A stretch of DNA of 43,105 nt, from contig CAXGWI010000015.1 of the NCBI GenBank assembly GCA_964013405.1, forward strand, positions 1 to 43,105, in the 5' to 3' direction. Shown here in pieces: positions 5,143 through 36,716 of the stretch. A program made the position numbers and the translations under genes. Under the pieces are notes generated by a model, which saw nothing but the letters and a program-made list of their open reading frames with translations, did no database searches and had not been told where the DNA came from. Each line of letters opens with the position of its first letter. The stretch's first letter is position 1. The DNA is from an uncultured Myxococcales bacterium (GTDB lineage: Bacteria; Myxococcota; UBA4151).

Positions 5143-5160
5143 CGGTTTCTGGGAGCGTTG

Positions 5161-7656
5161 ATGAGTGAAGAAGAAGAGCTAGAGACAGCGCCTCAAAAGC
5201 CAGCCCGTCGCTGGCTTAAGGTGCTCTTGATTCTCTTTCTGGTGGGCCTGCTCCTGGCCGCCGGTGCGGTGGGCGGAGTCATCTGGCACTTCAGCAAGGA
5301 CCTTCCCCGGGTCGATACTCTGGCCGAGTACCGGCCACCCCTGATCACTCGAGTCTACAGCCGAGATGGCGAACAACTGCTTGCTGAGTTCTGCGAGGAA
5401 CGTCGCACGCTGGTGCCTTATAAGGAGGTCCCCGAGCATGTTCGACATGCCTTTCTCGCCGCGGAAGATTCGGACTTCTTCAATCACGATGGCGTCGACT
5501 ATTTGGGCATCCTGAGAGCGGTATTTAAGAACCTTGTGCGCGGCGGCCGGGTCCAAGGCGCGTCGACCATTACCCAGCAGACCGCCCGGGCATTTTTGCT
5601 CCACCGGCGCAAAACCTACACCCGAAAGATTCGGGAGATCCTGCTGACCTGGAAGATCGAGGAACGGTTCAACAAGGAGGAGATTTTCTATCTGTACTTG
5701 AACCACATCTATTTCGGTGCCTGTTTGGAAGACGGCTTCGGTTGCTATGGGGTCCAAGAAGCCAGCCGCCGCTATTTCGGCAAAGATGTTCAGGAGCTGA
5801 CCTTGGCGGAGGGGGCCGTGCTCGCCTCCCTTCCCAAAGCACCGAACAAATACAACCCTCGGACAAGCCCCGATGAGGCCAAGAAGCGGCGAGACTGGGT
5901 GCTTTCGATGATGGTGAAGAAGAAGTTCGCTGCGGCCGATGCTGTGGCCGCAGCGAAGGAGGAACCCGTCCTCACTCGACCGACGCAGAACCCCTATTAC
6001 GAAAAGGCGCCTTATTATTCGGAGCACGTCCGGCAGATCCTCGAAGAAGAATACGGCCGGGAGACGCTCTACAAGGGGGGGCTCAACATCCGAGCAAGCG
6101 TGGATCTCGGGATGCAGCGAGCGGCGCGCAAAGCACTCATGACCGGGCTTGAGCGCGTGGATCGGGCCCAGGGCTATCGGGGCCCCCTTTACCGGCCGGC
6201 CGATGAGGCGGCCCAAGTGGCCCTCGGTAAGGCCATCGAAGCGACGGCCGTGCAGGGGGGGCAAATCCTCGACCTCCAAGGCTTGGCCGGCGAAGAGCCG
6301 CCCAAGGATGTGGCCGGGGCCATCCGCGTGGTGTCGGTCGCGCCGGGCTTGAGTGTGGGCGCACGAGTCACAGCGATCGAGAAACAAAAGACTCGGCGGG
6401 GGCGCCAGCGCTTCGGTCTCCTCGACATGGGAGGCGGGCGCAAAGGACGGGTGAATTTGAGCGAGCGGGCCTGGCAAAAGCCCTTGCCCGGACGGATGCC
6501 TAAAATCTGGGGCAATGGGCAGAGGCCCTACACTCGGATCAAGGCCGGGGACATCGTTTTGGTCCGCCTCACCAAGGTCAACGAGGACCAAAGTCTTGAG
6601 GCCCAGCTCATTCAAAAACCCCGGGTGCAAGGGGCCCTGATCGCCATCGACCCCCGCAGTCGGGACGTCCTCGCCATGGTGGGCGGCTACTCCTTCTTAG
6701 AGAGCCCTTTCAACCGGGCGGTCCAGAGCCGTCGCCAACCGGGATCGGCCTTCAAGCCCCTGGTCTATGCCGCCGGGATTCAAAGCCGGCGCTTCACGCC
6801 GGCGACCATGATCACCGATCAGCCGACGACCTTTCGAGATGCGGTCAAGGGAACCTCATGGAAGCCAAAGAATTACTCGGGGGCCTTCGAGGGGGATATC
6901 TCGGTGCGTTACTGCCTAACGTTCTCGAAGAACACCTGCTCCATTCAAATCGCCGAGAGCGTCGGTTACGACGCGATCAAGGGCCTGGCCCGATCCGTTG
7001 GCATCGAGAGCCGGCAGCCCAACGATCTGACCTTGTCTCTGGGGAGCGGTGAGGTCTTTCCCTTGGAACTGGCCAATGCCTACGCCACCCTCGCCGCCGG
7101 CGGGAAAGTAGCGAAGCCGATCTTCATCGCCCAGGTGGACGACCGATTTGGCGAACAACTCGAAGCCAACAAGGCGGAGTTGCGCCAGGTGGTCGATCCC
7201 GCCGTGAGCTATCTAACGTTGTCGCTTATGCGCTCGGTGGTGGAGAGCGGCACGGCCCAATCGGTCAAAGCCTTAAAACGGGACGTCGCCGGCAAAACTG
7301 GCACCACCAATGAGCAGCGCAGTGCGTGGTTTGTGGGCGCCGTTCCAGAGCTCGTGACGGCCGTCTACCTTGGCTTCGATAACAATGATCCCCTCGGTCC
7401 GGCCATGACGGGCGGCGGGATCGCCGCGCCGATCTGGTTGGAGTTTATGAAGGCCGCGTTGGACAAGGAGTCGAAGGAGCGCTTCGCCGTGCCGCCTGGC
7501 GTGGTCTTTGCGCGCATCGACCCGAAGACCGGGCTTCTGGCCCCCGAAGGCGCTGCTGGCGCGCGCCAGGAGACCTTCCTGACGGGCACAGCCCCGAAGG
7601 AGATGACTTCCATCGAGGAACAGACCGAAGCCGATCTGCTCGACGAAGAATACTAG
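5161..7656 (+). CDS. mrcA: Penicillin-binding protein 1A (bifunctional transglycosylase/transpeptidase)
   Basis: TM anchor. TG motifs AAEDSDFFNHDGVD, GASTITQQ, RKIRE. TP motifs SAFK, SKN, KTG. OB-like insertion between the domains. Confidence 0.93.
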   Translation: MSEEEELETAPQKPARRWLKVLLILFLVGLLLAAGAVGGVIWHFSKDLPRVDTLAEYRPPLITRVYSRDGEQLLAEFCEERRTLVPYKEVPEHVRHAFLAAEDSDFFNHDGVDYLGILRAVFKNLVRGGRVQGASTITQQTARAFLLHRRKTYTRKIREILLTWKIEERFNKEEIFYLYLNHIYFGACLEDGFGCYGVQEASRRYFGKDVQELTLAEGAVLASLPKAPNKYNPRTSPDEAKKRRDWVLSMMVKKKFAAADAVAAAKEEPVLTRPTQNPYYEKAPYYSEHVRQILEEEYGRETLYKGGLNIRASVDLGMQRAARKALMTGLERVDRAQGYRGPLYRPADEAAQVALGKAIEATAVQGGQILDLQGLAGEEPPKDVAGAIRVVSVAPGLSVGARVTAIEKQKTRRGRQRFGLLDMGGGRKGRVNLSERAWQKPLPGRMPKIWGNGQRPYTRIKAGDIVLVRLTKVNEDQSLEAQLIQKPRVQGALIAIDPRSRDVLAMVGGYSFLESPFNRAVQSRRQPGSAFKPLVYAAGIQSRRFTPATMITDQPTTFRDAVKGTSWKPKNYSGAFEGDISVRYCLTFSKNTCSIQIAESVGYDAIKGLARSVGIESRQPNDLTLSLGSGEVFPLELANAYATLAAGGKVAKPIFIAQVDDRFGEQLEANKAELRQVVDPAVSYLTLSLMRSVVESGTAQSVKALKRDVAGKTGTTNEQRSAWFVGAVPELVTAVYLGFDNNDPLGPAMTGGGIAAPIWLEFMKAALDKESKERFAVPPGVVFARIDPKTGLLAPEGAAGARQETFLTGTAPKEMTSIEEQTEADLLDEEY

Positions 7657-7659
7657 GCC

Positions 7660-7687
7660 TAAACAACCCAGACTTAACCGTCGATGT
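7660..7687 (+). promoter_or_regulatory. Putative sigma28 (FliA/SigD) promoter
   Basis: TAAA-N16-GTCGATGT against the SigD consensus TAAA-N16-GCCGATAT (4/4 and 6/8 matches), directly upstream of a flagellin gene. Confidence 0.7.
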
Positions 7688-7709
7688 TGGTAGTGGAGGC
7701 TTGTTCTCC

Positions 7710-7750
7710 CTGCTCCAAGGATGGAGCGGTTGGATCTCAAGGAAGAGGTC
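7710..7750 (+). promoter_or_regulatory. Two GGA-loop hairpins, putative CsrA-binding sites in the flagellin 5' UTR
   Basis: CTGCTCCA-AGGA-TGGAGCGG (7710-7729) and GATCTC-AAGGAA-GAGGTC (7733-7750). The second covers the Shine-Dalgarno region and ends 5 nt before ATG 7756. Confidence 0.65.
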
Positions 7751-7755
7751 GTAAG

Positions 7756-9876
7756 ATGCTTGCGATACGGTCGAACATATCGGCGCTTCACGCCCTTCAC
7801 CGCATGCAGAGGCAGCAGTCTCAGCAGCAGCTTCGAGGCGAGCACTTAGCCACCGGCAAGCGGGCGAACTCCGCGGCCGACGACGCCGTTGCGATCAATT
7901 TGTCGAGCCGGGCTCAGAACCGCTTGGCTGGGCGCCGGAGCGCACGACAAAACGCGCTGGATGCCATCGATCTCGTCTCGGGTATCGACCGATCGACGGG
8001 GGAGTTGGTGGGCATCCTCCACCGGATGCGAGAGTTGGGCCTTCGAGCCCAAAGTGAGGTCTTCGGGCCCCGAGAGCGCTCCTCGCTTAATGACGAGTGG
8101 ACCATGCTTCACGCCGAGATTGATCGCATCGGTGCCACCACTAATTTTAACGGAGTCGTTCCTTTTCAGGGCTCCACCCAACTGACCTTCCAAATGGGTA
8201 TTGGAGGTACAAACAACGATCGCATTGGCTTGAGTCTCGATAGTAATCTCGAGGCGGGCGTTGATGGACTCTCGATCAATCGCACCTTGCTGCTGTCGTC
8301 AGCGGCCACCCTGGCGATGGATAATGTACAACCCTACACATTTATCGCGGGAGAGACCGATACCCTGCGGATCGCAGTCAACGGCGGGGGTTTTCAGGAG
8401 ATCCGCTTCAATGCCGGGGCCAACAGTTCCAATCAGGTGGTCAGCCAGATCAATGCGGTCTTTCCCGATCTCGCGTTCGACATCGCCGGGCGTGTTTTTC
8501 TGCGTGCCGAAGGTTTAGGCTCCAATACGGCGATACGAAACGGCCCCGCACCCACGTCCCCGCTCCTCGATGGAACGAATGCGGGCCAATACGACACCAC
8601 CGGAGGGCGCAATACCTTCCAACTAGGAATCGATGGCGGCGGGCTCCAAAATATCACCCTGCCCGTGGGGGCAGCCATCACTTCTCAGCAGGTGGTCGAC
8701 GCCATCAACGGCGTGTTTCCTGGTCGTGCTCAAATGATCAGCCGGCAGCAGGCCAGCGAGATTCAATCGAACCAGGGGGGGCCGTTCGATATTCGAGCCG
8801 GCGTCAACGATACGTTGAACCTTGAGGTCAATGGCGTCAATCGTACCGTGGTCTTTGACGACACCAGTCCGCTGGATGCGACCAACGCCGGGCCCTACAC
8901 GATCCAGGCCGGTATCAACGATACCTTCCGTTATCAGTACCAGGGGAATATGCGGGTCTTGAGCCTCGCCGCCGGTGTCTATCAGCCGGGCGAGATTCGA
9001 GATCAGATCAACGCCATCGATGCGGGGCTGGCTTCTGTCGCCGGCGGTGCATTGCGTCTGCAACCGGCGGCCGGCACAGCCGTCCAGGTTCGCAACGGCA
9101 ACATGAACAGCCTCCTTGGCTTCGCAAACTTCGTCAGCCAGCGGGGCCAGTACACCGCGGCGAATGTGCGCACTGCGATCAATGATGTGAGCGCTGGGCT
9201 CGCCGTGATCCGGGGGGGGCGGGTGGTCATGCGACCACCGGGCACAGGCCCGAGCGCCCATCTGCGCATCCTTAATGGCAATGGCACAGCCACCCTCGGC
9301 TTCAATGCGGGGGATTCCACTCGGGGGACGGCTAGGGTTCGGATCAGTAGCTCCACCGAGGGGCGACGGGGTGAAGTACGGATCGGCGGGGGCTCGGCTA
9401 ACAACGCCCTCGGCTTCAGCAGCAACAGCCAGGTCAATGGTGTGGACAACAGCAGCGCCTCGGAAGTGCTCGGGGTGGACTACAACGAGCTCGTGCAAGG
9501 GGAGGACGCCCAAGTCCCCGAGGCCATGGGCCAGGTGTCGACGGCCCTGGGGCGGGTGATGGACTTTCGCGCTCGACTGGGGGCGGTTCAGCGCCGTCTT
9601 GAGCAGGCGATCGGCGCGATCATGCGTGCGGTCAGCGATGATCAAATGCATGACTCCCAGGTCATGGATGCCGACTTCGCTGTGGAAACCGCTCGCCTCA
9701 CCAAGAGTCGAATCCTTGCCAACAGTTCTACCGCCGTCCTGGGCCATTCAAGCGTCTATGGGCGCAACGCTGTCGCCCTTTTACGGGGAGGAAGCATAAG
9801 TCGCGGTGGACACCGCAACCTGTCCTCTGCATTTAGTGCGGCAGGAGCGATTCGCGGATGGTCGGCCGGCATTTAG
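7756..9876 (+). CDS. fliC: Flagellin (divergent, large) with four nested repeat modules in the variable region
   Basis: N-terminal IRSNISAL...LATGKRANSAADDA...LHRMREL...EIDRIGATTNFNG and C-terminal RARLGAVQRRLE...DADFAVETARLTKSRIL. ATG 7756 is preferred because of the RBS and the canonical flagellin N-terminus. Confidence 0.9.
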   Translation: MLAIRSNISALHALHRMQRQQSQQQLRGEHLATGKRANSAADDAVAINLSSRAQNRLAGRRSARQNALDAIDLVSGIDRSTGELVGILHRMRELGLRAQSEVFGPRERSSLNDEWTMLHAEIDRIGATTNFNGVVPFQGSTQLTFQMGIGGTNNDRIGLSLDSNLEAGVDGLSINRTLLLSSAATLAMDNVQPYTFIAGETDTLRIAVNGGGFQEIRFNAGANSSNQVVSQINAVFPDLAFDIAGRVFLRAEGLGSNTAIRNGPAPTSPLLDGTNAGQYDTTGGRNTFQLGIDGGGLQNITLPVGAAITSQQVVDAINGVFPGRAQMISRQQASEIQSNQGGPFDIRAGVNDTLNLEVNGVNRTVVFDDTSPLDATNAGPYTIQAGINDTFRYQYQGNMRVLSLAAGVYQPGEIRDQINAIDAGLASVAGGALRLQPAAGTAVQVRNGNMNSLLGFANFVSQRGQYTAANVRTAINDVSAGLAVIRGGRVVMRPPGTGPSAHLRILNGNGTATLGFNAGDSTRGTARVRISSSTEGRRGEVRIGGGSANNALGFSSNSQVNGVDNSSASEVLGVDYNELVQGEDAQVPEAMGQVSTALGRVMDFRARLGAVQRRLEQAIGAIMRAVSDDQMHDSQVMDADFAVETARLTKSRILANSSTAVLGHSSVYGRNAVALLRGGSISRGGHRNLSSAFSAAGAIRGWSAGI

Positions 9877-10457
9877 ATGAGACGGAGGTCGCCCTCGTTC
9901 ATGAGGTGATCCGGCAACGCCGGTCCATCAAACCCAGTGCGCTTTCAGACCGACCTGTGGCCCGGGAAGCGATCGAAGCCCTGCTCGATGCCGGCAACTG
10001 GGCCCCTAGCCACTACCTGACCGAACCTTGGCGCTTCGTGGTCGTTGAGGGGCAAGCACGGCATGAACTGGCCGATGTTTTTCTCGAAGCGGTCTTGGCT
10101 GCGGAGCCTAAGGCCGACGAGTACAAGCGCAAAAAGGTCCATGGGAAACCCTTGCGATCACCGACTTTGATCGTCGTGATTCGCCAGGGTGGGGAGCACC
10201 CGAAGGCCAAGGATCATGAAGATGAGTGGGCGGTGGCTTGTGCTGTCCAAAACATGGCCCTTGCGGCGGCCGCAAGAGGGCTCGGCCTCTTTTGGTCGAC
10301 GGGCACACCGATGGCTCACCCGCTGGTCGCTGAGCACTTCGGCTGTGATGACCGGTCCCGGGTGATGGGCTTTCTGTACGTGGGCTGGCCGGCCGCAGAT
10401 GCCTGGCCGGAGGGGCGTCGCGGCGACGTAAGTGACAAGACTGAATGGCGAGTCTGA
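9858..10457 (+). CDS. Nitroreductase family protein (YdjA-like)
   Basis: RRSIK, WAPSHYLTEPWRF, CAVQNMALAAAARGLGLFWSTG, GFLYVG. Confidence 0.9.
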   Translation: MVGRHLDETEVALVHEVIRQRRSIKPSALSDRPVAREAIEALLDAGNWAPSHYLTEPWRFVVVEGQARHELADVFLEAVLAAEPKADEYKRKKVHGKPLRSPTLIVVIRQGGEHPKAKDHEDEWAVACAVQNMALAAAARGLGLFWSTGTPMAHPLVAEHFGCDDRSRVMGFLYVGWPAADAWPEGRRGDVSDKTEWRV

Positions 10458-10504
10458 ACAAAACCGGTCTCTGGGCCGTTGAGAGGCGTGGAGGCTCGCG
10501 CACG

Positions 10505-11299
10505 ATGACTCGACTTGTATTATTTGCGGCCCTTGGGCTTGGCCTGGTCGCTTGCCCGAAGCCCCCGGTCTATCCGGCCTGTAAGACGGATAAGGACTGC
10601 TCCGAAAAGAGTGAGCGCTGCGTCTTTGGAAAGTGTGAGCAATGCATCGATGATAAGGATTGCTCGGCGGACCAACGCTGTGAGCGGAACGTCTGTGTGG
10701 ATCAGCCTGAATGCGAAGCGGACACCGATTGCGCCGAGGGGCAGGCTTGCCGTGAAGGCCGGTGTGTGACGCCCGAGCCGACGGGGGCCCGGTCTTGTCA
10801 GGTGGATCAAGAATGTGAAGAGGGACAGCGTTGTGTGGATGGCCTTTGCGCCGCCGTGCGTTCCTGCTCAGCGGATAGCGACTGTCAGGAGAACGAAGGC
10901 TGTCAAAACGGCAGCTGTCTGCCGCTCGTGGCCGAAAAGCCCGGACAAGGCGCTTGTGCCGATGAGGCCGGAGACCTCTGGGCTGCTGTCCATTTCGATT
11001 TCAACGGGGACAAGCTGGCCGATGACGCCCGAGAGCGCCTCGATCGATTAGCTCGTTGTCTGCGTGAGATCGACAAGGCGGAAATCCGAATCTTGGGGCA
11101 TGCTGACGAACGGGGAACAGAGGAATACAATCTCCATCTCGGTGAGCGTCGGGCCCGAGCGGTGAAACGCTATCTCGTCAACCTGGGGGTGCCAGAGAAC
11201 AAACTGCCGGTGGTGAGTTACGGTGAGAACCGACCGGTCTCCGAGGGCCAGGATGAGTCCAGTTGGGCGAAGAACCGGCGAGCGGAGTTCGAACGGTAA
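10505..11299 (+). CDS. OmpA/Pal-family lipoprotein with N-terminal Cys-rich repeats
   Basis: Lipobox LVAC, five C-x2-D-x2-C repeats, OmpA-like domain VHFDF...GHADERGTEEYNLHLGERRA...VSYGENRP...KNRRAEF. Confidence 0.9.
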   Translation: MTRLVLFAALGLGLVACPKPPVYPACKTDKDCSEKSERCVFGKCEQCIDDKDCSADQRCERNVCVDQPECEADTDCAEGQACREGRCVTPEPTGARSCQVDQECEEGQRCVDGLCAAVRSCSADSDCQENEGCQNGSCLPLVAEKPGQGACADEAGDLWAAVHFDFNGDKLADDARERLDRLARCLREIDKAEIRILGHADERGTEEYNLHLGERRARAVKRYLVNLGVPENKLPVVSYGENRPVSEGQDESSWAKNRRAEFER

Positions 11300-11303
11300 A
11301 GCC

Positions 11304-12197
11304 ATGCGTACGGTTCTTTTAATCAGCCTAGCCCTTGGTGGCTGCTGGGTTCCGATGACCCAGGGCAAGGTCATGGAAGGGGATATTCGGACCCTCCGGG
11401 ATCGGGTGATGGAGTTGGAAGACCGGGCCGAGGACAGCGAGAGCCGTTTACGGGGGCAGTTAGCCAAAGCCGACGAGCAAAGTCAGCGTTTGGCAAAAAC
11501 CCTCGACCAGGTCGAAGTCCTGGCCCGTCGAGCCAAGGCTGGGTTTGGTGAGGACCTCGCATCGATTCGTCGGGAGTTAGCCACGGTCGTTGGCCGTCTA
11601 GAACAACTGGAACAGGGAAGCCGACAGACCGACGGAACTGAGGTGGATCAGGCGCTCAAGACCCAAACGGAGGCGCTGGCGCTCATCGTGGAGCGAGTTG
11701 CAGCTCTTGAGGCGAAACTCAGCAAGCCAGTGGTCGTGGCCAAGAAGAAGAGCCCCGGCGAAGCGGCTCGTCAACCTTCGCCGGAGCGGGAAAAAAAGGA
11801 AGCCCAACAGGACAGTCGCACACTTTTCAAACGAGGGCGCTCCCTGCTGTCGAGCGGGCGCCATGAGGAAGGGCGCCGGGCCCTCAAGTCCTGGCTGAAT
11901 CGCTTCGGCAGCAGCCGGGATAAGGGCCGCCGTGCCGCGGTAGATGATGTCTACGTGTATCTGGGTGAAAGCTATCTGAAACAGGGCAGGCCCAAGGAGG
12001 CTGTCCCTCAGTTTCAACGAGTTTACGAAACGATGAAGCAGGCCGACATGTGGTCCCGCGCAGTCTTTCGCTTGGCTGAGTGTTTCGAGCAGATGCAGGA
12101 CAAAGCCGTCGCAAAAGCCTTCTACAAGATCGCGGTGAAAAACGGCAAAGGTCGCTACAAGAAAGATGCCGAGCGCCGACTCAAGCGCTTGCAGTAA
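11304..12197 (+). CDS. CpoB/YbgF-like coiled-coil + TPR lipoprotein
   Basis: Lipobox LGGC, long coiled coil, C-terminal TPRs (YVYLGESYLKQG; AVFRLAECFEQM). Lies immediately after the Pal-like gene. Confidence 0.8.
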   Translation: MRTVLLISLALGGCWVPMTQGKVMEGDIRTLRDRVMELEDRAEDSESRLRGQLAKADEQSQRLAKTLDQVEVLARRAKAGFGEDLASIRRELATVVGRLEQLEQGSRQTDGTEVDQALKTQTEALALIVERVAALEAKLSKPVVVAKKKSPGEAARQPSPEREKKEAQQDSRTLFKRGRSLLSSGRHEEGRRALKSWLNRFGSSRDKGRRAAVDDVYVYLGESYLKQGRPKEAVPQFQRVYETMKQADMWSRAVFRLAECFEQMQDKAVAKAFYKIAVKNGKGRYKKDAERRLKRLQ

Positions 12198-12199
12198 CG

Positions 12200-12670
12200 A
12201 TGGCCCCGCGCTGGCTCCCTCTCCTCTTCCTTTTGGTCAGCGGTTGCCCCTCCGAAGAGCGCCCCTCTGACACCTTGGCCCAAAGGGCCGACGAGATTCT
12301 CGAAGCCACTGGAGATTGGCTGGGGATCGAAGACCGAAAGTCGGCGGACTTCAGCGCCCTATTGACCTTGAAAACCGAGGTCGTGGAGGGTCGAGCACGG
12401 GCCCGTGGTCTCCTGCTCTTGCCCCCAGGCTCGTCGCCAAGGGTGGTGGAAGAGCAGTTAGACAGAGTCCTCACCAAGCCGGATCTCGTGCGGTTGACAA
12501 ACGTCCTCTTGGTGGTGGCCCGAGCGACGACCGCCGATGGTCAAGAGGGACCGATCCTGGGGGCCGGCTTCTATGCAAGTGACGGCCTGGGCTGGACTGG
12601 CAAGGCCTCTGGTCACCGCCGTGTCGCCATTGGAGCCGATGCTCTTGAGGTGCTCGGGATCGGTCGTTAG
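12200..12670 (+). CDS. Hypothetical lipoprotein
   Basis: MAPRWLPLLFLLVSGC signal/lipobox. Starts 2 nt after the previous stop. Confidence 0.7.
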   Translation: MAPRWLPLLFLLVSGCPSEERPSDTLAQRADEILEATGDWLGIEDRKSADFSALLTLKTEVVEGRARARGLLLLPPGSSPRVVEEQLDRVLTKPDLVRLTNVLLVVARATTADGQEGPILGAGFYASDGLGWTGKASGHRRVAIGADALEVLGIGR

Positions 12671-12731
12671 ACCGAGAGCGCTGGTCCGCGTCCTCATCGC
12701 AAGCTAAGGTAACGACGCCATTGGAGCGACT

Positions 12732-15212
12732 ATGCGGAATTTTATCGTCTCTTTCTTGCTCTTCGCAGGTCTGACCGCTTGTAACCCCAGCGTCGGTGCG
12801 CCCTGCGTGGCCGACACAGATTGTGCCTCGGACCAACTGTGCCAGGATGGCGCCTGTGCGGAGCGGAGTAGCGCTGCCGATGCGGGTCCCGTCCGGGGGG
12901 ACGAATGTATGCGGGACTTTGATTGTCCCGCAGGTCAACAATGCGCCAACGGTTTCTGTGACGGCGGCGAGACAGCGGATGCTGGCACCGGCGGCGACGA
13001 CCGTTGTGCGAACGATGAGGACTGCGGTCGGATGCGCGGTTGTTACGAGGGGACGTGCCACAGCCGATGCTTCAACGATTCCGTCTGCGAGCGGCAGGAG
13101 CCCGGAACGATCTGCATGGATGATCCAAACAACCGGCTGGGACTGTGTCTGCCGCCCGAATGTTCGGGGGCTGATGAATGCCCGGTGAACCACGATTGCA
13201 ATGATGGGCGCTGCGAGGAGTACACGCCTTGCGAGCGGGATGACCAGTGTGGCGCCGCGGGCTTCTGCAATGACAACGGCCGCTGTGAAGACCGGGAGGA
13301 CTGCCTCCGAGATGCGGACTGTGAGGACGGCCAAACCTGCAATGAGGGGTTCTGTTATAGCGTACCCAGTTGCGCGGAGGGCGAGACCTGCCCGGATGGC
13401 ACCGAATGCGTCGGTGGCAACTGTGTAGAAGCGATTTGTCGCTCCAACGACCAGTGTGCGGAAGGCGAGGTCTGTACCGCAGGGGTCTGCGCTCGGCCCG
13501 AAGCCATCGCACCGGACAAAGTGCTCGTCGTGACCCCCTACGGCGCCTGTGACTCGGGCAATGCAGGGGCTTGCCGCCTCCCCATGCGAGTCGGTGAGCA
13601 GGTTCAACTCCGGGCCATGGCCCTGGACGTCAATGGCGTCGGAATTCCCGGCTTGGACTTCAGTTGGTCGTCCCAAGGGGCCGCGAACATTTCGAACTCG
13701 GGACTCCTCACGGCTGCCGCGGCCGGCACCAGTCTCGTGACGGTCACCGCCTTGGAGGTGGAGAGTCGCCCTGTCACAGCCACGGTGGTGGCGGCCCAAC
13801 CCGGCCGTCTCCGGGTCGTCGATGATCGAGGGCGCGCGGTCGCAGGCGCTCGAGTCGCCGTGAGCGGCGAGTGGCTGGAAGCCAGCACCGACGAAAGCGG
13901 CAGCCTGCAACTGGACTTAGAGGATGGCGAGTTTAGCGTTTCTGTCTTCGCCGAGAATCACGACCAGATCGCTGTCTTTGGTCTCGCGCATTCGGCAGCG
14001 GCACCCTTTGACGGGCTCATCGCCATCCCCCAATCCATGGTCAGCCGTTCGGCCGGCTACACCGCCACCGTCGACTTCGGTGGTGTCCGCACCCAGGGGA
14101 GCGGCGATCTGGGTATTTCTGGAGCCAGTCTGCCCGATTTACTCTCCTTCGACCTGCCCGGGCTTGTGGGTGACACTTTTGACACCCCGGTCTCGATTCC
14201 TGGCTTGGGTAATCAAACGGTGCCGATTCCCGGCGGGATTACCTTCCGAGCCAGCCAGCCGATCCAGCTTGAGATCAAGAACACCGTCTATGCCCGTGGC
14301 TTCCCCGGTGTTCGGACCGCTTGGAGTTTCGCTGGCCGCGTGGATGCTTTAGGGCTCTTTGGTCAAATTCAGGGGTCCCAAGATATCGGCCGTGTCGTGG
14401 CGGCGATCTTACCCCAGGTGGAGAGTTTCGATCACGGCTTGATCGCCGGGCTCAATCTCAGCGGCATGGAGGATATTGTCGATGTGGACGACATCGATGG
14501 CGATGGTAACACCACCGAGGTGGTGGCCAACTGGCGCCGCTTCCCCAGTCGCAGCTTGCGTCCAAGTGTGCGTCAGAATGGTCGAACCTTGGTCCTCATT
14601 CCAGGCGCGGCAGGGGCAGAGTTCCAAGTGGTGGTCGGCGGTGTGTTGAACCCGGGGACAGGCTTTGTTCCTCTGGGGCTAACCTCTCGCAACGGTGAGG
14701 GGGCCCAGAGCCTACCTTTCGCGATCGCTCCGGCCTACGGCGGCCTGGAGGGGGCACCGTATGCCTTTGCCACCATGGCGCTGCGGGATCAGGGGCTCAC
14801 GACTCAAGCTCGTGTCTTGACCAACAGCAACCTCGCCGTTGAGCAGCGCTTCCCGGCCCACCTGCCGGTGCCGCAGACGGTCGAGCGTAGCCAGTTGAAC
14901 AATACCGTGACCATGAGCCCGGTCGCCGGGGCCCACCTGTTACGCTTCGTGGGTGTTGGGCCTGCGGGTCGAGTCGTTGTCTTCGCCCCATCGGCCGAAG
15001 CAGCCGCAACCTTTGCCCCACCGATTCCGGCCGGGGAAGCTGCGGGCGCTCGCCTGACGTCGGTGACTTTCGACGGTATTAGCTTATCAGCAGCGGCAGC
15101 GCCGGATCAGGTTGGCCTGATGAATCGACTGCTTGGCGGGGGCGCCGTCGTGCTGCGGAATGTGTCCCAGAACGCGACCGGCTTTGTACGTAAGGTGATC
15201 AGTCCCGAATAG
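12732..15212 (+). CDS. Large Cys-rich repeat lipoprotein with Ig-like/beta-rich C-terminal region
   Basis: Lipobox LTAC, about nine Cys-rich repeats, Ig-like segment (FSWSSQGAANISNSGLLTA), DIDGDG Ca-binding-like motif. Confidence 0.85.
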   Translation: MRNFIVSFLLFAGLTACNPSVGAPCVADTDCASDQLCQDGACAERSSAADAGPVRGDECMRDFDCPAGQQCANGFCDGGETADAGTGGDDRCANDEDCGRMRGCYEGTCHSRCFNDSVCERQEPGTICMDDPNNRLGLCLPPECSGADECPVNHDCNDGRCEEYTPCERDDQCGAAGFCNDNGRCEDREDCLRDADCEDGQTCNEGFCYSVPSCAEGETCPDGTECVGGNCVEAICRSNDQCAEGEVCTAGVCARPEAIAPDKVLVVTPYGACDSGNAGACRLPMRVGEQVQLRAMALDVNGVGIPGLDFSWSSQGAANISNSGLLTAAAAGTSLVTVTALEVESRPVTATVVAAQPGRLRVVDDRGRAVAGARVAVSGEWLEASTDESGSLQLDLEDGEFSVSVFAENHDQIAVFGLAHSAAAPFDGLIAIPQSMVSRSAGYTATVDFGGVRTQGSGDLGISGASLPDLLSFDLPGLVGDTFDTPVSIPGLGNQTVPIPGGITFRASQPIQLEIKNTVYARGFPGVRTAWSFAGRVDALGLFGQIQGSQDIGRVVAAILPQVESFDHGLIAGLNLSGMEDIVDVDDIDGDGNTTEVVANWRRFPSRSLRPSVRQNGRTLVLIPGAAGAEFQVVVGGVLNPGTGFVPLGLTSRNGEGAQSLPFAIAPAYGGLEGAPYAFATMALRDQGLTTQARVLTNSNLAVEQRFPAHLPVPQTVERSQLNNTVTMSPVAGAHLLRFVGVGPAGRVVVFAPSAEAAATFAPPIPAGEAAGARLTSVTFDGISLSAAAAPDQVGLMNRLLGGGAVVLRNVSQNATGFVRKVISPE

Positions 15213-31905: not shown

Positions 31906-34608
31906 CTAGAAGCCGCCGCCGCCAGCTGCTTGGTGCGCACCACCCACGTTCCTGCACATGGGTACCTCGAGACCGACCGGATTCATGGATCCTAGGCCCT
32001 GAACACCGGTGATGTTCATGTCGCCAGCGCGGTTCTGTACGACCACATTTTGTTCCATACCTATCTCTTGGTGGCTCGGGTGGCCCGATAACTCGTTGCC
32101 CTCGATGTGCACGGTGACGGTCCCGGCCAGGTGGGGGGCATTGTCATAGCTGCCCCATTCGGCGTGATCGACCGCGAGGCCGCCCACGTGGTTGTCACTG
32201 ATGGTGTTGTGACTGACATTGAGGGAAACCACGTCGAGGGCGGCCACCCCATAGCCAAAGAGCACCAGTTCCGGGGACCCATTGACCATATCCACGAATC
32301 CGGCCTGCCGGGTCCGACTGAGGTTGTTGGACTGGATATTGATCGGTGCTGTGGAAGCCCAAGCATAAATGCCGGCCCCCCGGGACCCGGTGATCGTGTT
32401 GGCCTCGACAGCAACATCGGTATGGGACCGCAAATCATAGAGAAGGACCCCCCGCCCCAGCACATCGGAGATCTCATTGTTGCTGACAGACCATTCCCCG
32501 GTCGTCGACTCCCCGCGCAGGGAGATACCCGTTCGTTGCCCGCTTTGGATTTCATTGCCCTCGATTTGGCCGCTGCCATCGACCTGGCCGATATAGATCC
32601 CATCGTGTCCAATGGGGCCGAGCATCGTGTTGTTGTTCACAGCCAAGGAGCCTGAAATTCGCTGGGCGATGATACCGGTCCGAGCGGCCCGCCCGATCTC
32701 ATTGCCTTCGATGCTAACCCCGCCACCATCGGGAGCCACCGTTTTATAGACGCAAATCCCATCAAGGCCGATGGGGCCCAGGAAGCGGTTGTCGTGGATC
32801 TCCCAGGAACCGGTCGGGTAGAGGTCTGGATTGCTCCAACTGGTCCCAAGGTACATACCGTGCTGATAGGCTCGGCCCACCGTGTTGTTGACCACCCGGC
32901 CTGCGCCAATCCCGCCCAGAACGCTGATGCCGGCACCGGCAAAGGGGCCGCTGAGATCATTGTCGGTGATGCGGAGGTTGTGAGCCAGTTGGACGAGAAG
33001 AATACCGTCTCCCTCGCTAACATCGCCGATGGCGTTCGCACCGATGACGAGTTCAGGTGCAATATCAGGTGGGTCGGGTTGCTCCTGGTTGTAGATCAAA
33101 ATGCCCGCAGCACCAGTGGGGCCGACAATCCGGTTTTGGAAGACTCTGATGTTTTGGCCGACATCGCGCAAACGGATCGCATTTTCGCCGGTTTGTCCGA
33201 TGTGGTTGCGCAGGATGTCGAAACTTGATGTTTGCTCACAATTGATGGCTGCGATGCCATAACTGCCGACGGGCCCATCGATTCGGTTGCCCTCAAGGAT
33301 GATCGGCGCAGTCACACCATCGATCCCGATGCCCGAGTGGCCGACCCAGCCAATCGTGTTTCGGTACAGCCGCTGAGTTTCATCACCGCCGCGCCAGTAG
33401 AGAACGATGCTCGAGTGGGCAATGGGGCCGCTGATCTGGTTGAAGGCAATGTTGAGAGGACCGGCGCCGCCGGCGACCGTGACGGCCGAGCCACCGACTT
33501 GATCGAAGCGATTATGCTCGATGTTCACAGCCCCCTCTTGGTGTTCTTCGGCGTTCACGTAGAGGCCCAACTCACCGAGGGGGCCTGCGACTTCATTATT
33601 GGAAAACCGGAGATCGCCATCGATCGAACTCACCGTGACACCCCGGGAGGCAGAAGCACCCACATAGTTGTGGGTCATGGTCACATCCCCAGCGATATCA
33701 AGGATGTTAACAATCCAACCCCAGTTCGGTCCGCGAAAATCGCTCCCAGCGATGGTCACCGGTCCGGCTGATCCGACGACAGCAAAGCTGTTGATGTTGG
33801 TGCGACCGAAGCTCGTGCTCGAAAGATGAACGCCTCTCGCACCCACATCGTAAATCGTGATGCCAAGGGTATAGGTTGATTCGATCATCAGCTCGCTCAG
33901 CTCGATGCCACCGGCCCCAAAGACCGCCAGTGCGCCCTCACGGAAGCTATCAGGGCTGCGTTCGACCTCAGAACTCAGGTGGAGACCTGCAACGCGGAGG
34001 CGGGCCACATCGTCCACTTGCACTGCGATCTGATCACCACCGCTGAGATGGGTTTCGCTGGGACAGAGGCCCACCAGCGTCACGACACGGCCTGAGCCGC
34101 CGATGGCTAGGCCTTCCTCGAACGTGCCGGCACCGTAAAGCAGGGTGATATCTGCATCGGCTGCGACCCCATCGAGGGCAACCGTCGCGCTTGGCGCCGG
34201 TGATTCAGGGCTTTGCCCATCACCGCTACCACCAACGGCGATGTAGCGTTTCACAGCCTCCCGGGCAGCCCAGGGGTGATCGGTGGCGAAGGGGCCGGCG
34301 TGGCAGGCAGCGCGGGGGCCGACGACGGGCCGGCAGCGCTGGAAGAGGGGATCATAGGCGGAGTGCTCGTCGCATTCCGGTACCGGCGAGCTCTCCGGCC
34401 CCGTGTCGAAAGCTGGCTGGTCGACCCAAGGGTTCGGGTCACCGAGATCACTTGTTGGTCCCATCCAGCCCAGGGCCGGGGGGTTGCAGGCCCTTCCCCT
34501 GCAGTCCCCCTCAGCGCTACGAATCGGAAAGGCGTGGGGTTCCTTCGGGGGCGGGAGTTCAAAGCAGCCAACCAGAAGGAGCGCGGTGATGGGTATGAGG
34601 CGGTGCAT
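31906..34608 (-). CDS. Right-handed parallel beta-helix repeat lipoprotein
   Basis: MHRLIPITALLLVGC lipobox and many N-x-I/G-I coil repeats. TAATG coupling to the upstream gene. Confidence 0.85.
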   Translation of the reverse strand: MHRLIPITALLLVGCFELPPPKEPHAFPIRSAEGDCRGRACNPPALGWMGPTSDLGDPNPWVDQPAFDTGPESSPVPECDEHSAYDPLFQRCRPVVGPRAACHAGPFATDHPWAAREAVKRYIAVGGSGDGQSPESPAPSATVALDGVAADADITLLYGAGTFEEGLAIGGSGRVVTLVGLCPSETHLSGGDQIAVQVDDVARLRVAGLHLSSEVERSPDSFREGALAVFGAGGIELSELMIESTYTLGITIYDVGARGVHLSSTSFGRTNINSFAVVGSAGPVTIAGSDFRGPNWGWIVNILDIAGDVTMTHNYVGASASRGVTVSSIDGDLRFSNNEVAGPLGELGLYVNAEEHQEGAVNIEHNRFDQVGGSAVTVAGGAGPLNIAFNQISGPIAHSSIVLYWRGGDETQRLYRNTIGWVGHSGIGIDGVTAPIILEGNRIDGPVGSYGIAAINCEQTSSFDILRNHIGQTGENAIRLRDVGQNIRVFQNRIVGPTGAAGILIYNQEQPDPPDIAPELVIGANAIGDVSEGDGILLVQLAHNLRITDNDLSGPFAGAGISVLGGIGAGRVVNNTVGRAYQHGMYLGTSWSNPDLYPTGSWEIHDNRFLGPIGLDGICVYKTVAPDGGGVSIEGNEIGRAARTGIIAQRISGSLAVNNNTMLGPIGHDGIYIGQVDGSGQIEGNEIQSGQRTGISLRGESTTGEWSVSNNEISDVLGRGVLLYDLRSHTDVAVEANTITGSRGAGIYAWASTAPINIQSNNLSRTRQAGFVDMVNGSPELVLFGYGVAALDVVSLNVSHNTISDNHVGGLAVDHAEWGSYDNAPHLAGTVTVHIEGNELSGHPSHQEIGMEQNVVVQNRAGDMNITGVQGLGSMNPVGLEVPMCRNVGGAHQAAGGGGF

Positions 34609-36716
34609 TATTGGTGCTCCTGACATGCCGCGATTTGATAACCGGCCGAGACGGGGCAGACGAGGTCGCCTGGGCAGTCTGCATCCCGAGCACAGGCCCG
34701 GCTGCAGCGATTGTTTCCGGCACAGAAATAGCCGTCGGGACATTGGATTGAACTGGCGCAGGGCTCGCCGGGGCCGGCCCGCTGATCGGCGGGGGCTTGG
34801 GCAATGCAGTAACTGTCTCGGAAGCGCCCTTGGCCCAGAAAGCAGCGTCGGGCCTCACCGCAACTATCCAGGGAGACCGTGTCGCAGTGTTCTTCGTCAG
34901 GCAAACAGGCGTAGCCAAAGTTTTGCGTATCGATTTGAGTATAGAGGCAGGCGCTGCCTTCGTCACAGCCCCGGTCGCCATGAAGGAAGCCTGGTGTGCA
35001 GCCGGGCCGACAATGGGGCGCACCGTTCTCATCGGCACCAGCACAGACCAGCCCATCGCCACACTGACGGTCATTCTCACCCCGTGCTGCGTCTCGGTCA
35101 CAGGCCGCACCTTCGGGGAGATCGCCGCCTTCGTAGCAGATCCCGATCCACAGGCCATTCCCCACGGAGATTTCCTGACAGTAGCCATCGAGCCGGCCCG
35201 CGCGACCGTTGTGGCACGGTCCTCCCAACTCACCATTGGCATAGGGACCGTATGCCGGGGGCAGGTGTTGGGCACTGCCGCAGTACCGGGTCCAGCAGTA
35301 GGGGGTTGGGCCGTCAACGCAGTAGGTCTGTCGATTGAGACAGTCATCCTGTTGCTGGCACAATCGGATGCACATCGGGCCTTGGTTCATGGCGGCGCAG
35401 ATCAAGCCGTCTGAGCAGGCCAATGATTCGGAGCAGGTTTGGAATTCACCCCGCCGGCACCGGTTGTCACTACAGACGAGGTTGGTGATGGTCCCGGTTC
35501 GGTCGTAGCCGTAACAATCGCCGTTGGTTTCGCAGGGCAGCCGTCGGGTGTCCATACAGTAGCCTCGAGGCCAGCCGTCGGGAAAGCGACAGAATCCGGT
35601 GTCGCCGGCACAGTCCCCATGAAAATCACAGGTAGGTTCACAGCGGAAACAGGCATCTGCACCGCTTTCGTTGCCATCATCACAGACCTCATAGTTCTCG
35701 TGATTCACAGGGAGGTCGAGGCGTCGGATCCCATCGCCGCAAACCGCGTTGAGACAGTGGTTCGTGCAAGCATCTTGGTTTTCGTCGTTGCCGTCATCGC
35801 AGGCCTCATAGCCGACCTGGCCCGGTTCCCGGTCCTCCCGCAGGATCCCGTCGCCACAGTAAGTGGCCCGACAGTTGGGTAGACAGCCGTCATTGCTGGC
35901 CGCATTGGCATCGTCGCAAGCCTCAAAGCCGGGCTCACCCTCCGCGAGATCTTGTCGATGAATTCCATCACCACAACGGGCCGGCTGGCAGCGATTGGTA
36001 CAACCATCTCCACCGTCACCATTACCATCATCGCATGCTTCACCCTCCTGGACGATGCCATCGCCACAGTAGGGCAGGGTGCAGTCTGCTGCACAGCCAT
36101 CATCGTTCACGTCATTGCCGTCATCGCAGTCCTCATAGCCGGGCTGCCCAAGGGCCACGTCGAGTCGAAGGATCCCATCACCGCATCGGGCCGGGATGCA
36201 CGCTGAGGTGCAACTGTCCGTGTCCAATGCATTGCCATCGTCGCAGAGTTCGGCCTCGGCCTCGCCGGGGGCTAGGTCGACTCGAAGGAGGCCATCGCCG
36301 CACCGGGCCGGCTGGCAGGCGGTGGTGCAGGCATCGGTATCGAGGGCATTGCCATCATCGCAGCCCTCCCGTTCCGAATGGAGCACGCCGTCCCCGCAAC
36401 GAGCCAGCGCACAGCCGGTGCAGTCATCGCCATCGTCTTCGTTGCCGTCATCGCAAGCTTCGAACTCGGGATGGTCTGGATCGAGATCGGCCCGGACGAT
36501 GCCATCACCACATCGGGCCGGTGCACAGGCCCGCGTGCAGGCATCCCGGTCGATGAGGTTGCCGTCATCGCAGTCCTCGTTGTCGCTGAGGAGACCATCA
36601 CCGCAGTAGCGTTGCGGTCCTGCGTCAGTTTGCGGCTCATCCGCCCCAGCCGTCGGCGTAAACTCGTAGCAACCGACCAGGCAGGGCACGAGTGCGAGAA
36701 TCCATAGGCGCCGCAT
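34608..36716 (-). CDS. Myxococcales-type Cys-rich repeat (DUF4215-like, CGDG) lipoprotein
   Basis: Lipobox LVGC, nine CGDG...E-x-CDD[GA]N...C repeats, then a further Cys-rich C-terminal region. Confidence 0.88.
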   Translation of the reverse strand: MRRLWILALVPCLVGCYEFTPTAGADEPQTDAGPQRYCGDGLLSDNEDCDDGNLIDRDACTRACAPARCGDGIVRADLDPDHPEFEACDDGNEDDGDDCTGCALARCGDGVLHSEREGCDDGNALDTDACTTACQPARCGDGLLRVDLAPGEAEAELCDDGNALDTDSCTSACIPARCGDGILRLDVALGQPGYEDCDDGNDVNDDGCAADCTLPYCGDGIVQEGEACDDGNGDGGDGCTNRCQPARCGDGIHRQDLAEGEPGFEACDDANAASNDGCLPNCRATYCGDGILREDREPGQVGYEACDDGNDENQDACTNHCLNAVCGDGIRRLDLPVNHENYEVCDDGNESGADACFRCEPTCDFHGDCAGDTGFCRFPDGWPRGYCMDTRRLPCETNGDCYGYDRTGTITNLVCSDNRCRRGEFQTCSESLACSDGLICAAMNQGPMCIRLCQQQDDCLNRQTYCVDGPTPYCWTRYCGSAQHLPPAYGPYANGELGGPCHNGRAGRLDGYCQEISVGNGLWIGICYEGGDLPEGAACDRDAARGENDRQCGDGLVCAGADENGAPHCRPGCTPGFLHGDRGCDEGSACLYTQIDTQNFGYACLPDEEHCDTVSLDSCGEARRCFLGQGRFRDSYCIAQAPADQRAGPGEPCASSIQCPDGYFCAGNNRCSRACARDADCPGDLVCPVSAGYQIAACQEHQ
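35628..36608 (-). repeat. Nine tandem CGDG Cys-rich coding repeats (short and long variants)
   Basis: Visible in the translation and as recurring gccgtcatcgca-like DNA on the + strand. Confidence 0.85.

Follow-up and report, generated by a model that had tools for sequence, protein, structure and literature searches.

A large flagellin paralogue with a nested four-copy repeat arm and a C-terminal tail in a flagellated relative of the myxobacteria

We analyzed a 43,105-nucleotide stretch of DNA from an uncultured Myxococcales bacterium (contig CAXGWI010000015.1), here called the window, which carries an unusual flagellin gene. The window is contig C15 of the source genome G000 (3.9 Mb in 244 contigs, 94% complete, 0.71% contamination). 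C7, C9, C11, C48 and C116 are other contigs of this genome, and L013 is the locus of an orthologue. Positions 7756–9876 (+) encode a flagellin paralogue of 706 amino acids (74 kDa), as identified by Pfam scan and by alignment to the orthologue. It matched PF00669 (Flagellin_N) with an E value of 1.3e-17 (64.6 bits, Pfam cut-off 26.6) and PF00700 (Flagellin_C) with 9.9e-11 (42.3 bits, cut-off 23). The longest open reading frame (ORF) begins at 7684. However, ATG 7756 is the likely start because the orthologue aligns from there and a predicted promoter and leader occupy the upstream stretch.

Domain scans placed a PBP1A (mrcA-like) gene upstream at 5158–7656 (+) and a nitroreductase gene downstream at 9858–10457 (+), followed by Pal-like and YbgF-like genes. 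An earlier note on this DNA had put the flagellin between mrcA and a nitroreductase with no other flagellar gene in 43 kb, and both observations hold. No structural flagellar family was found by Pfam in the 36 other window ORFs scanned, and their sole flagellar-named match was a sub-threshold FleQ hit on a plain receiver domain. Two peptides quoted in the note are present in the protein at residues 20–34 and 88–97. The note missed a repeat insert of about 400 residues and a C-terminal tail of 29 residues.

The protein carries both halves of the D0/D1 core. The N-terminal half (residues 1–170, 7756–8265, +) matches PF00669, is diverged and shows 62% identity to the orthologue. The C-terminal D1/D0 half (residues 580–677, 9493–9786, +) matches PF00700 and ends at the usual ..ALLR register. 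Both halves are complete in length, and the D0/D1 helices are free of deletions. The motif LHRMRELGLR, which the note had set against a usual LQRMRELAVQ, is indeed present; the local norm, however, is LDRMRELAVR rather than the form cited, and paralogue C116:8928 reads LHRMRELA. The protein is not FlgL (TIGR02550, 57.6 bits, cut-off 127.2). It is not flagellinolysin either, with no HE dipeptide (HExxH) and no NF033876 match at E 1e-6.

Between the two halves lies an insert that, by sequence profile, consists of four nested copies of a shared unit of ∼85–90 residues, all on the plus strand. Outer repeat 1 (D2) covers residues 188–269 (8317–8562, profile positions 2–83), and its closing element probably lies at residues ∼563–575, as judged by eye. 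Outer repeat 2 (D3) is split into an N-terminal part at residues 273–330 (8572–8745) and a C-terminal part at residues 521–558 (9316–9429); its profile match runs from position 2 to 69 over residues 273–343 and is completed by positions 59–90 over residues 521–558. Outer repeat 3 (D4) is likewise split, with residues 338–371 (8767–8868) matching positions 3–32 and residues 462–520 (9139–9315) matching positions 33–90. Outer repeat 4 (D5) is uninterrupted at residues 375–460 (8878–9135, positions 2–89) and has a predicted FliD-D3/tail-sheath-like fold. A profile made without the orthologues gave the same repeat map. D5 was the one repeat modelled, and the nested three-dimensional layout is read from the profiles. 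A whole-protein AlphaFold2 model from a 3-sequence alignment had a predicted local distance difference test score (pLDDT) of 38 and was not used.

The insert is more conserved than the core. Between the two orthologues in the window and L013, identity is 67% in the core and 83% in the insert; in four other flagellin pairs of the same genus it is 75–90%. Nonsynonymous divergence (dN) is 0.27 in the core, at saturated synonymous sites, and 0.12 in the insert, where synonymous divergence (dS) is ∼2.8. Core and insert are both under purifying selection. The usual flagellin pattern of conserved core and variable outside is reversed in this protein.

To find relatives of the insert, residues 180–575 were searched against 1.84 billion representative sequences, which gave 36 matches. 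Pfam scans of 35 of these, together with a third orthologue (P0003), identified 10 other flagellins or fragments, 4 phage tail-sheath proteins (best E 2.9e-13), one baseplate J protein, one FlgK and a large number of unnamed proteins. FlgK, FliD and large flagellins from other phyla joined the set in a further search. At E 0.001, PF07196 (Flagellin_IN) did not match the window protein. It matched 8 of 36 related proteins scanned, and in four of these the cut-off was reached or exceeded, whether scored on the full protein or on a segment. The ESM atlas returned unnamed clusters only, plus one weak Flagellin_IN lead (22% of one cluster).

The D5 model, built from 28 sequences, had a pLDDT of 93. 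Its best structural match was the PhiTE sheath (Z 6.7, root-mean-square deviation [rmsd] 2.9, 75 residues aligned), and six FliD D3 entries, drawn from several species, matched with Z of 5.8–6.4 and rmsd of 2.3–3.0 Å over 80–84 of 86 residues. An algal virus capsid protein model (Z 6.2), the XM1 sheath (5.8) and Pseudomonas FliC (5.3) also matched. In a profile search the XM1 sheath scored E 2.5e-5 and FliD E 0.002–0.008, with a profile that includes sheath rows. Since Z values under 8 are middling, the support for the fold lies in the agreement of structure and sequence-profile methods. On this basis the modelled D5 appears to share the FliD D3 fold. Foldseek against the PDB and viral models gave no match at E 0.001, the highest-ranking weak hits being entries for flagellin, FliD, sheath and minor capsid proteins. 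As a separate observation, the repeat fold has weak matches among the minor capsid and penton proteins of giant viruses of algae and protists (BFVD; PDB 8RBT, 8H2I). We name no donor of the repeat because the window repeats score much the same against profiles of tandem flagellins as against those of virion-like proteins. The FliD of the source genome itself matches the repeat weakly (16.9 bits). In the open-licence literature searched, including the accessible parts of PMC10256154 and PMC8931119, we found no link between flagellin outer domains and phage sheaths.

P0005, P0006, P0007, P0008, P0012 and P0018 form a separate clade of ∼860-residue flagellins with six tandem copies of the repeat and diverged cores and D0 ends. 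This separate clade suggests a second, independent gain of the repeat. None of these flagellins was found in a metagenome scan, and their hosts were not found among 401 genomes of the phylum, where their insert matched only the source genome, the same-genus genome G001 and one further sequence weakly.

The 29-residue tail past the normal flagellin end (9787–9876, +) overlaps the ribosome-binding site and start of the nitroreductase gene. All three orthologues overhang the usual ..ALLR end by 29 residues; the remaining 71 of 74 sequences stop between −3 and +5 of it. Synonymous divergence (pS) is 0.36 in the tail compared with 0.73 elsewhere. Both the window and L013 have a TAA in the +1 frame five codons past the normal end. 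The codons CTT TTA CGG are kept with the orthologue despite saturated synonymous sites, and TTA makes up ∼4% of Leu codons. Together, CTT TTA CGG and the following +1 TAA (window 9778–9802) could be an old stop or a possible frameshift site. The low pS, the nitroreductase overlap and the +1-frame TAA suggest that the tail may be a read-through that became fixed and is retained for the sake of the downstream gene. Whichever its origin, the tail would be made as part of the protein and would restrict its assembly. The tail RNA may fold into a hairpin that covers the ribosome-binding site of the nitroreductase, with a strength not above that of shuffled sequences (z −0.9 and −0.2). Nothing on point about flagellin C-terminal extensions was found in the open-licence literature searched.

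Just after the mrcA stop lies a predicted promoter, CTAAACA-N14-GTCGATG (7659–7686, +), which we take to resemble the sigma-28 consensus. Both boxes are kept in L013 with the spacer changed. The same motif precedes two other flagellins of the source genome, and also the flagellin before fliD in the sister-genus genomes G002, G003 and G005; it is absent within 300 bases of four of the seven flagellins of the source genome. The two other flagellins of the source genome with the motif, L009:3388–4215 (C7) and L011:8526–9383 (C116), are diverged and short. Of these, the one that precedes fliD has a clade of its own, conserved throughout the family. Downstream of the promoter, the 73-nt leader folds alike in the window and L013 (z −2.1 and −2.8). 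It contains a predicted hairpin with an AGGA loop (7710–7729, +), which is of CsrA type and has the same fold in L013. RNA folding also predicted a second hairpin with an AAGGAA loop over the ribosome-binding site (7733–7750, +). We presume that the AGGA loop is a CsrA site motif, and the leader hairpins are as predicted for CsrA control. A CsrA/FliW switch is described in PMC8306008 (here and below, citations refer to the accessible parts of each article).

When the source genome was scanned, PF00669 had 8 matches: three on C116, three on C7, one on C9 and one in the window. One of the C7 matches is FlgL, the true flgL following flgK there, which leaves seven flagellins. The other six are 270–276 amino acids long and consist of the D0/D1 core only. 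We scanned 103 ORFs of the flagellar loci against domain and family profiles; some calls are best matches below the curated cut-off (e.g. fliD, motA, motB, fliQ, fliR, flhB and flgM). C7 carries fliS, fliD, flgL, flgK, flgM, motA, motB, fliM, fliN, fliP, fliQ, fliR, flhB, flhA, flhF, a MinD-like flhG, fliA, flgF, flgG, flgH, flgI and a flgJ-like gene, with csrA and fliW adjoining flgL. C11 carries flgB, flgC, fliE, fliF, fliG, fliH, fliI, flgD and flgE. On C116, flaG and pseB, pseC and pseD-like glycosylation genes adjoin three flagellins. The genome thus has the export apparatus and chaperone (flhA, flhB, fliP/Q/R, fliF, fliI, fliS) and one basal-body gene set only. The flagellin is therefore not "lone" genome-wide, as the earlier note had called it. 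All six genes it had listed for a search (flhA, fliF, flgE, fliD, fliS and fliA) were found, which bears out its first suggestion of a flagellated Myxococcota lineage with dispersed flagellin paralogues.

Some features of these loci stand apart. A second FHIPEP gene is SctV (G000:C1:103156–105153), and SctJ, SctL and SctN lie on C48 (L023:10505–17057) next to a Ser/Thr kinase, so that a non-flagellar type III secretion system (injectisome) is spread over two contigs. A 552-residue ORF at L017:875–2530 (C7) has FlgH as its C-terminal 230 residues, and its N-terminal 320 residues could represent a fused FlgA. In none of the six family genomes G000–G005 (completeness 59–94%) were CheW or MCP families found, nor was the CheA dimerisation domain found in G000. 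A full flagellum with six or seven flagellins and without chemotaxis is odd for relatives of the myxobacteria.

L013 carries a full-length orthologue with 77% identity among 11 genes in the same order. Genome G001 of the same genus also gave a 77% match and was counted once with L013; P0003 is 64% identical. A second metagenome scan yielded another copy of the orthologue already known, along with an unrelated locus. The four sister-genus genomes (G002–G005), which keep other flagellin paralogues, had no full-length match. In G003 and G004 the nitroreductase start follows directly on the mrcA stop, and no flagellin separates them; these are the two genomes in which the junction is readable, as the contigs of G002 and G005 end inside mrcA. 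The simplest reading is that the flagellin was inserted into the mrcA–nitroreductase junction in the source genus. Loss in the sister genus is the alternative, which we do not prefer. The paralogue is restricted to the genus.

A tree of the D0/D1 core was made from 65 rows, leaving out one broken frame and one truncated protein. The three orthologues formed a long-branched clade nested in the family's own main flagellin clade (96/91), away from the FlgL clade. This placement, the D0/D1 phylogeny that the earlier note had proposed, was stable when 23 rows including long-branched neighbours and FlgL were removed (95/91, 40 rows). The nesting points to duplication within the lineage. Paralogue C116:8928 came out as sister to the three orthologues, a placement marked as a long-branch join and not relied on.

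The closest named records, those of the orthologue, are titled Myxococcales or Myxococcota, and MYXO-CTERM has 3 matches over cut-off in the source genome. GltJ, taken as one gliding marker, scores at best 44.8 bits there (cut-off 450; genome 94% complete). Among 301 genomes of the phylum, GltJ was over cut-off in 111, flagellin was found in 103 and FliF in 99; all 6 genomes of the source family have flagellin. These tallies describe a sample with related genomes that do not count independently; G195, marked unpublished, is among them and carries no claim by itself. Anaeromyxobacter dehalogenans has a 55.7-kb flagellar cluster with fliC, and its strain K is reported to swim (2008, PMC2330069). 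Going by the phylum tallies and the Anaeromyxobacter report, flagellated relatives of the myxobacteria are no novelty, nor are they rare. The earlier note's surprise at a flagellin among non-flagellated myxobacteria is thus unsupported. It had allowed for an ordinary paralogue in a routinely flagellated lineage; the lineage is of that kind, but with its unusual architecture the paralogue is not ordinary. Separately, in family f10, which has the strongest GltJ signal, 20 of 115 genomes have flagellin and FliF, several of them 7–10 Mb in size with GltJ over cut-off. Large-genome myxobacteria may have gliding genes alongside flagellar ones.

Other scans of the window gave little. No meaningful DNA repeats and no Rfam match were found, and sigma-70 and terminator scans were at chance level. 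In RNA run X11, 3 of 6 short contig pieces over 20 kb fall inside the flagellin gene; the run was found with this gene itself, holds 8% of the words and consists of contigs only, and it was not counted as evidence. The sequencing runs listed for the gene are all marine metagenomes (18 of 18) with small shares, and the four compared gave short pieces with 90–100% identity. Elsewhere in the window, 10445–15212 encodes a Pal-like protein with N-terminal cysteine-rich DUF7107 repeats, which are also found on a downstream 826-residue Ig-like protein; the gene order is kept in G003. Between glyS and menaquinone-type genes, 31906–36716 (−) encodes a beta-helix protein as well as one that carries myxobacterial cysteine-rich repeats (TIGR02232 over cut-off).

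We propose that the window flagellin is a minor subunit that would be exported via the flagellar channel and built sparsely into the filament, displaying its four-domain arm. We give this an even chance. It is favored because the gene looks like a late flagellar gene, the export-and-assembly core is complete and the arm is conserved. It is supported by the presence of fliA, a flgM-like gene, csrA, fliW and six short paralogues. The earlier note's "minor or specialised subunit" agrees with the evidence. Flagellin outer domains are known to nest one inside the next (PMC8306008), and the nested insert, being like them, also supports a minor filament subunit. The gene would have begun as a duplicate of the family's own short flagellin. 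This founding copy would then have gained the nested repeat arm and landed in the mrcA–nitroreductase junction. Transcription would be late, from the sigma-28 promoter, with CsrA and FliW holding the product until export starts. The short D0/D1-only paralogues would build the bulk filament, and the diverged core and the tail would keep the protein at a low share or at one position. The job of the arm is probably adhesion or surface shielding, as suggested by its position and by the use of the same domain on virion surfaces; this is the weakest step.

Several points weigh against a filament subunit. Judged on 63 columns that are ≥90% conserved in 19 outside flagellins, the window core keeps 36, the fewest of the seven; the six paralogues keep 43–54 and FlgL 24. 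The earlier note was therefore right to call D0/D1 diverged. A core that diverges faster than the insert would also fit loss of polymerization, and the protein lacks the trait of bulk flagellins that the chain ends at the D0 helix end. The flagellin C-terminus faces the central channel, and the rise per subunit in the filament is 4.8 Å. The channel is ∼25 Å wide (PMC10256154). With these values, the tail occupies ∼3,400 cubic Å compared with ∼2,400 of channel per subunit, and therefore a homopolymer of tailed subunits looks impossible. Even sparse tailed copies may hinder export. The strict promoter pattern had 3 matches in the source genome, all before flagellins, compared with 1 in a simulated genome length, and a looser one had 7 compared with 8; the pattern was built from the sites it describes, so this enrichment is partly circular. 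Export and incorporation are both predicted from sequence.

The leading alternative is that the protein is a secreted flagellin homologue. Its D0/D1 would then serve as export signal and chaperone site, and it would exit by the flagellar channel without polymerizing and act outside the cell as an adhesin or matrix protein via the arm, which we consider somewhat unlikely. The core, which is more diverged than in any of the other six and changes faster than the insert, argues for it, as does the tail, which is unique among the 74 sequences and too large for the channel in a homopolymer. Vibrio FlaE and FlaF set a precedent, since they look like normal flagellins and are exported through FlhA, yet stay outside the filament and bind exopolysaccharide (PMC6692518). 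However, the two D0 helices and the D1 bundle show no truncation and are under purifying selection, and the nested layout suits radial display on a filament. Moreover, the Campylobacter precedent, FlaC, has no central domain, the opposite of the window protein (PMC8306008). For FlaE/FlaF and FlaC, exclusion from the filament was shown experimentally. The window protein is known from sequence alone, which cannot separate a secreted protein from a minor subunit. The protein could instead be a tip or terminator subunit, added last, whose tail plugs the channel and stops growth and whose FliD-D3-like arms decorate the end. The match of the repeat to FliD D3 and a tail that would fill the channel fit this, and position-specific flagellins are known in Bdellovibrio (PMC2791853). 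We nevertheless hold it quite unlikely, as the genome has a normal fliD, all four sister-genus genomes searched do without the gene while keeping other paralogues, and the nucleotide-level constraint on the tail suggests that it may be kept for the downstream gene.

A main subunit of a second, thick, conditional filament is very unlikely. The tail would have to be cut by a protease or avoided by a +1 frameshift, for which the +1-frame TAA behind the conserved CTT TTA CGG in the window and L013 would provide a site; the gene also has its own promoter and leader, and large flagellins with this repeat and normal ends exist. No upstream Shine-Dalgarno-like stimulator was seen in these two independent DNA sequences, many conserved core residues are lost, and only the single basal-body gene set is present. 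The earlier note had offered a flagellin repurposed in a cell without a flagellum, or a chimeric contig, to account for a 43-kb window with no other flagellar gene. Both are almost certainly wrong. The flagellar set on C7, C11 and C116 stands against the first. Misassembly is unlikely because the 77% identical orthologue lies in the same order of 11 genes in the independently assembled L013; GC content and that at third codon positions (GC3) are even with the neighbours, contamination is low and the core groups with the family's own flagellins. To uphold either idea, C7, C11, C116 and C9 would have to be mis-binned in the source genome and in its five relatives.

Compared with known systems, the minor-subunit arrangement resembles that of Bdellovibrio bacteriovorus, a related delta-type bacterium, in that several short flagellins are scattered in the genome. 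Bdellovibrio has six scattered flagellins, all in the filament and some at low level, with bands of 29–31 kDa and no large arm (PMC2791853), whereas the window paralogue has 74 kDa and four outer domains. The proximal FliC3 of Bdellovibrio has six extra C-terminal residues (bioRxiv 10.64898/2026.06.08.730854); compared with the 29 here, this too counts against incorporation. Anaeromyxobacter dehalogenans likewise has flagellar genes including fliC in a myxobacterium, which were inferred to be ancestral (PMC2330069). They lie in one 55.7-kb cluster with embedded chemotaxis genes, whereas the source genome has seven flagellins and flagellar genes on several contigs. Like FlaE/FlaF and FlaC, the window gene is a surplus diverged flagellin paralogue in a flagellar regulon; FlaE and FlaF, however, are normal-sized and 53–75% identical to true flagellins (PMC6692518).

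Multi-outer-domain flagellins (PMC11532411) also carry D2, D3, D4 and further domains nested between the D0/D1 halves, and the repeat fold is like that of FliD D3 and of the outer domain of Pseudomonas PAK FliC (4NX9, Z 5.3). The window protein differs in that its four nested copies are homologous and its insert is more conserved than its core. The nearest sequence relatives of the insert include phage tail-sheath and baseplate proteins. The outer domains of contractile-tail sheaths (XM1 gp6, 7KH1; PhiTE, 9CB9) share this small beta/alpha domain, as judged from the sequence profile (E 2.5e-5) and the predicted fold (Z 5.8–6.7); there it is displayed on the virion, and here on a flagellin. Multi-flagellin systems, large outer domains (PMC11532411) and flagellated Myxococcota are already known. 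A protein that combines nested sheath-like repeats with reversed conservation and a long tail was not found in searches of open-licence papers, the supplement of PMC11532411 with its 682 outer-domain clusters aside. Flagella did not come up in the accessible parts of bioRxiv 10.1101/2021.07.06.451402.

That about one third of the phylum genomes searched have flagellin and FliF implies that the view of myxobacteria as non-flagellated reflects the cultured fruiting genera. The window protein is a clean case of a reversed pattern, with a variable core, a conserved outer arm and a long tail. It offers a test of how far the flagellin C-terminus can grow and still enter the filament, and it links the outer domains of flagellin, FliD and FlgK to the decoration domains of phage tails. 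A bolder reading, which we think unlikely, is that a flagellin captured a domain shared with phage sheaths, nested four copies of it and, with its oversized tail, became a self-limiting display or tip-plug subunit on a bare filament, the ∼860-residue group with six tandem copies having done likewise independently. If this is true, it would be a recurrent way to turn flagellins into display proteins with parts common to virions.

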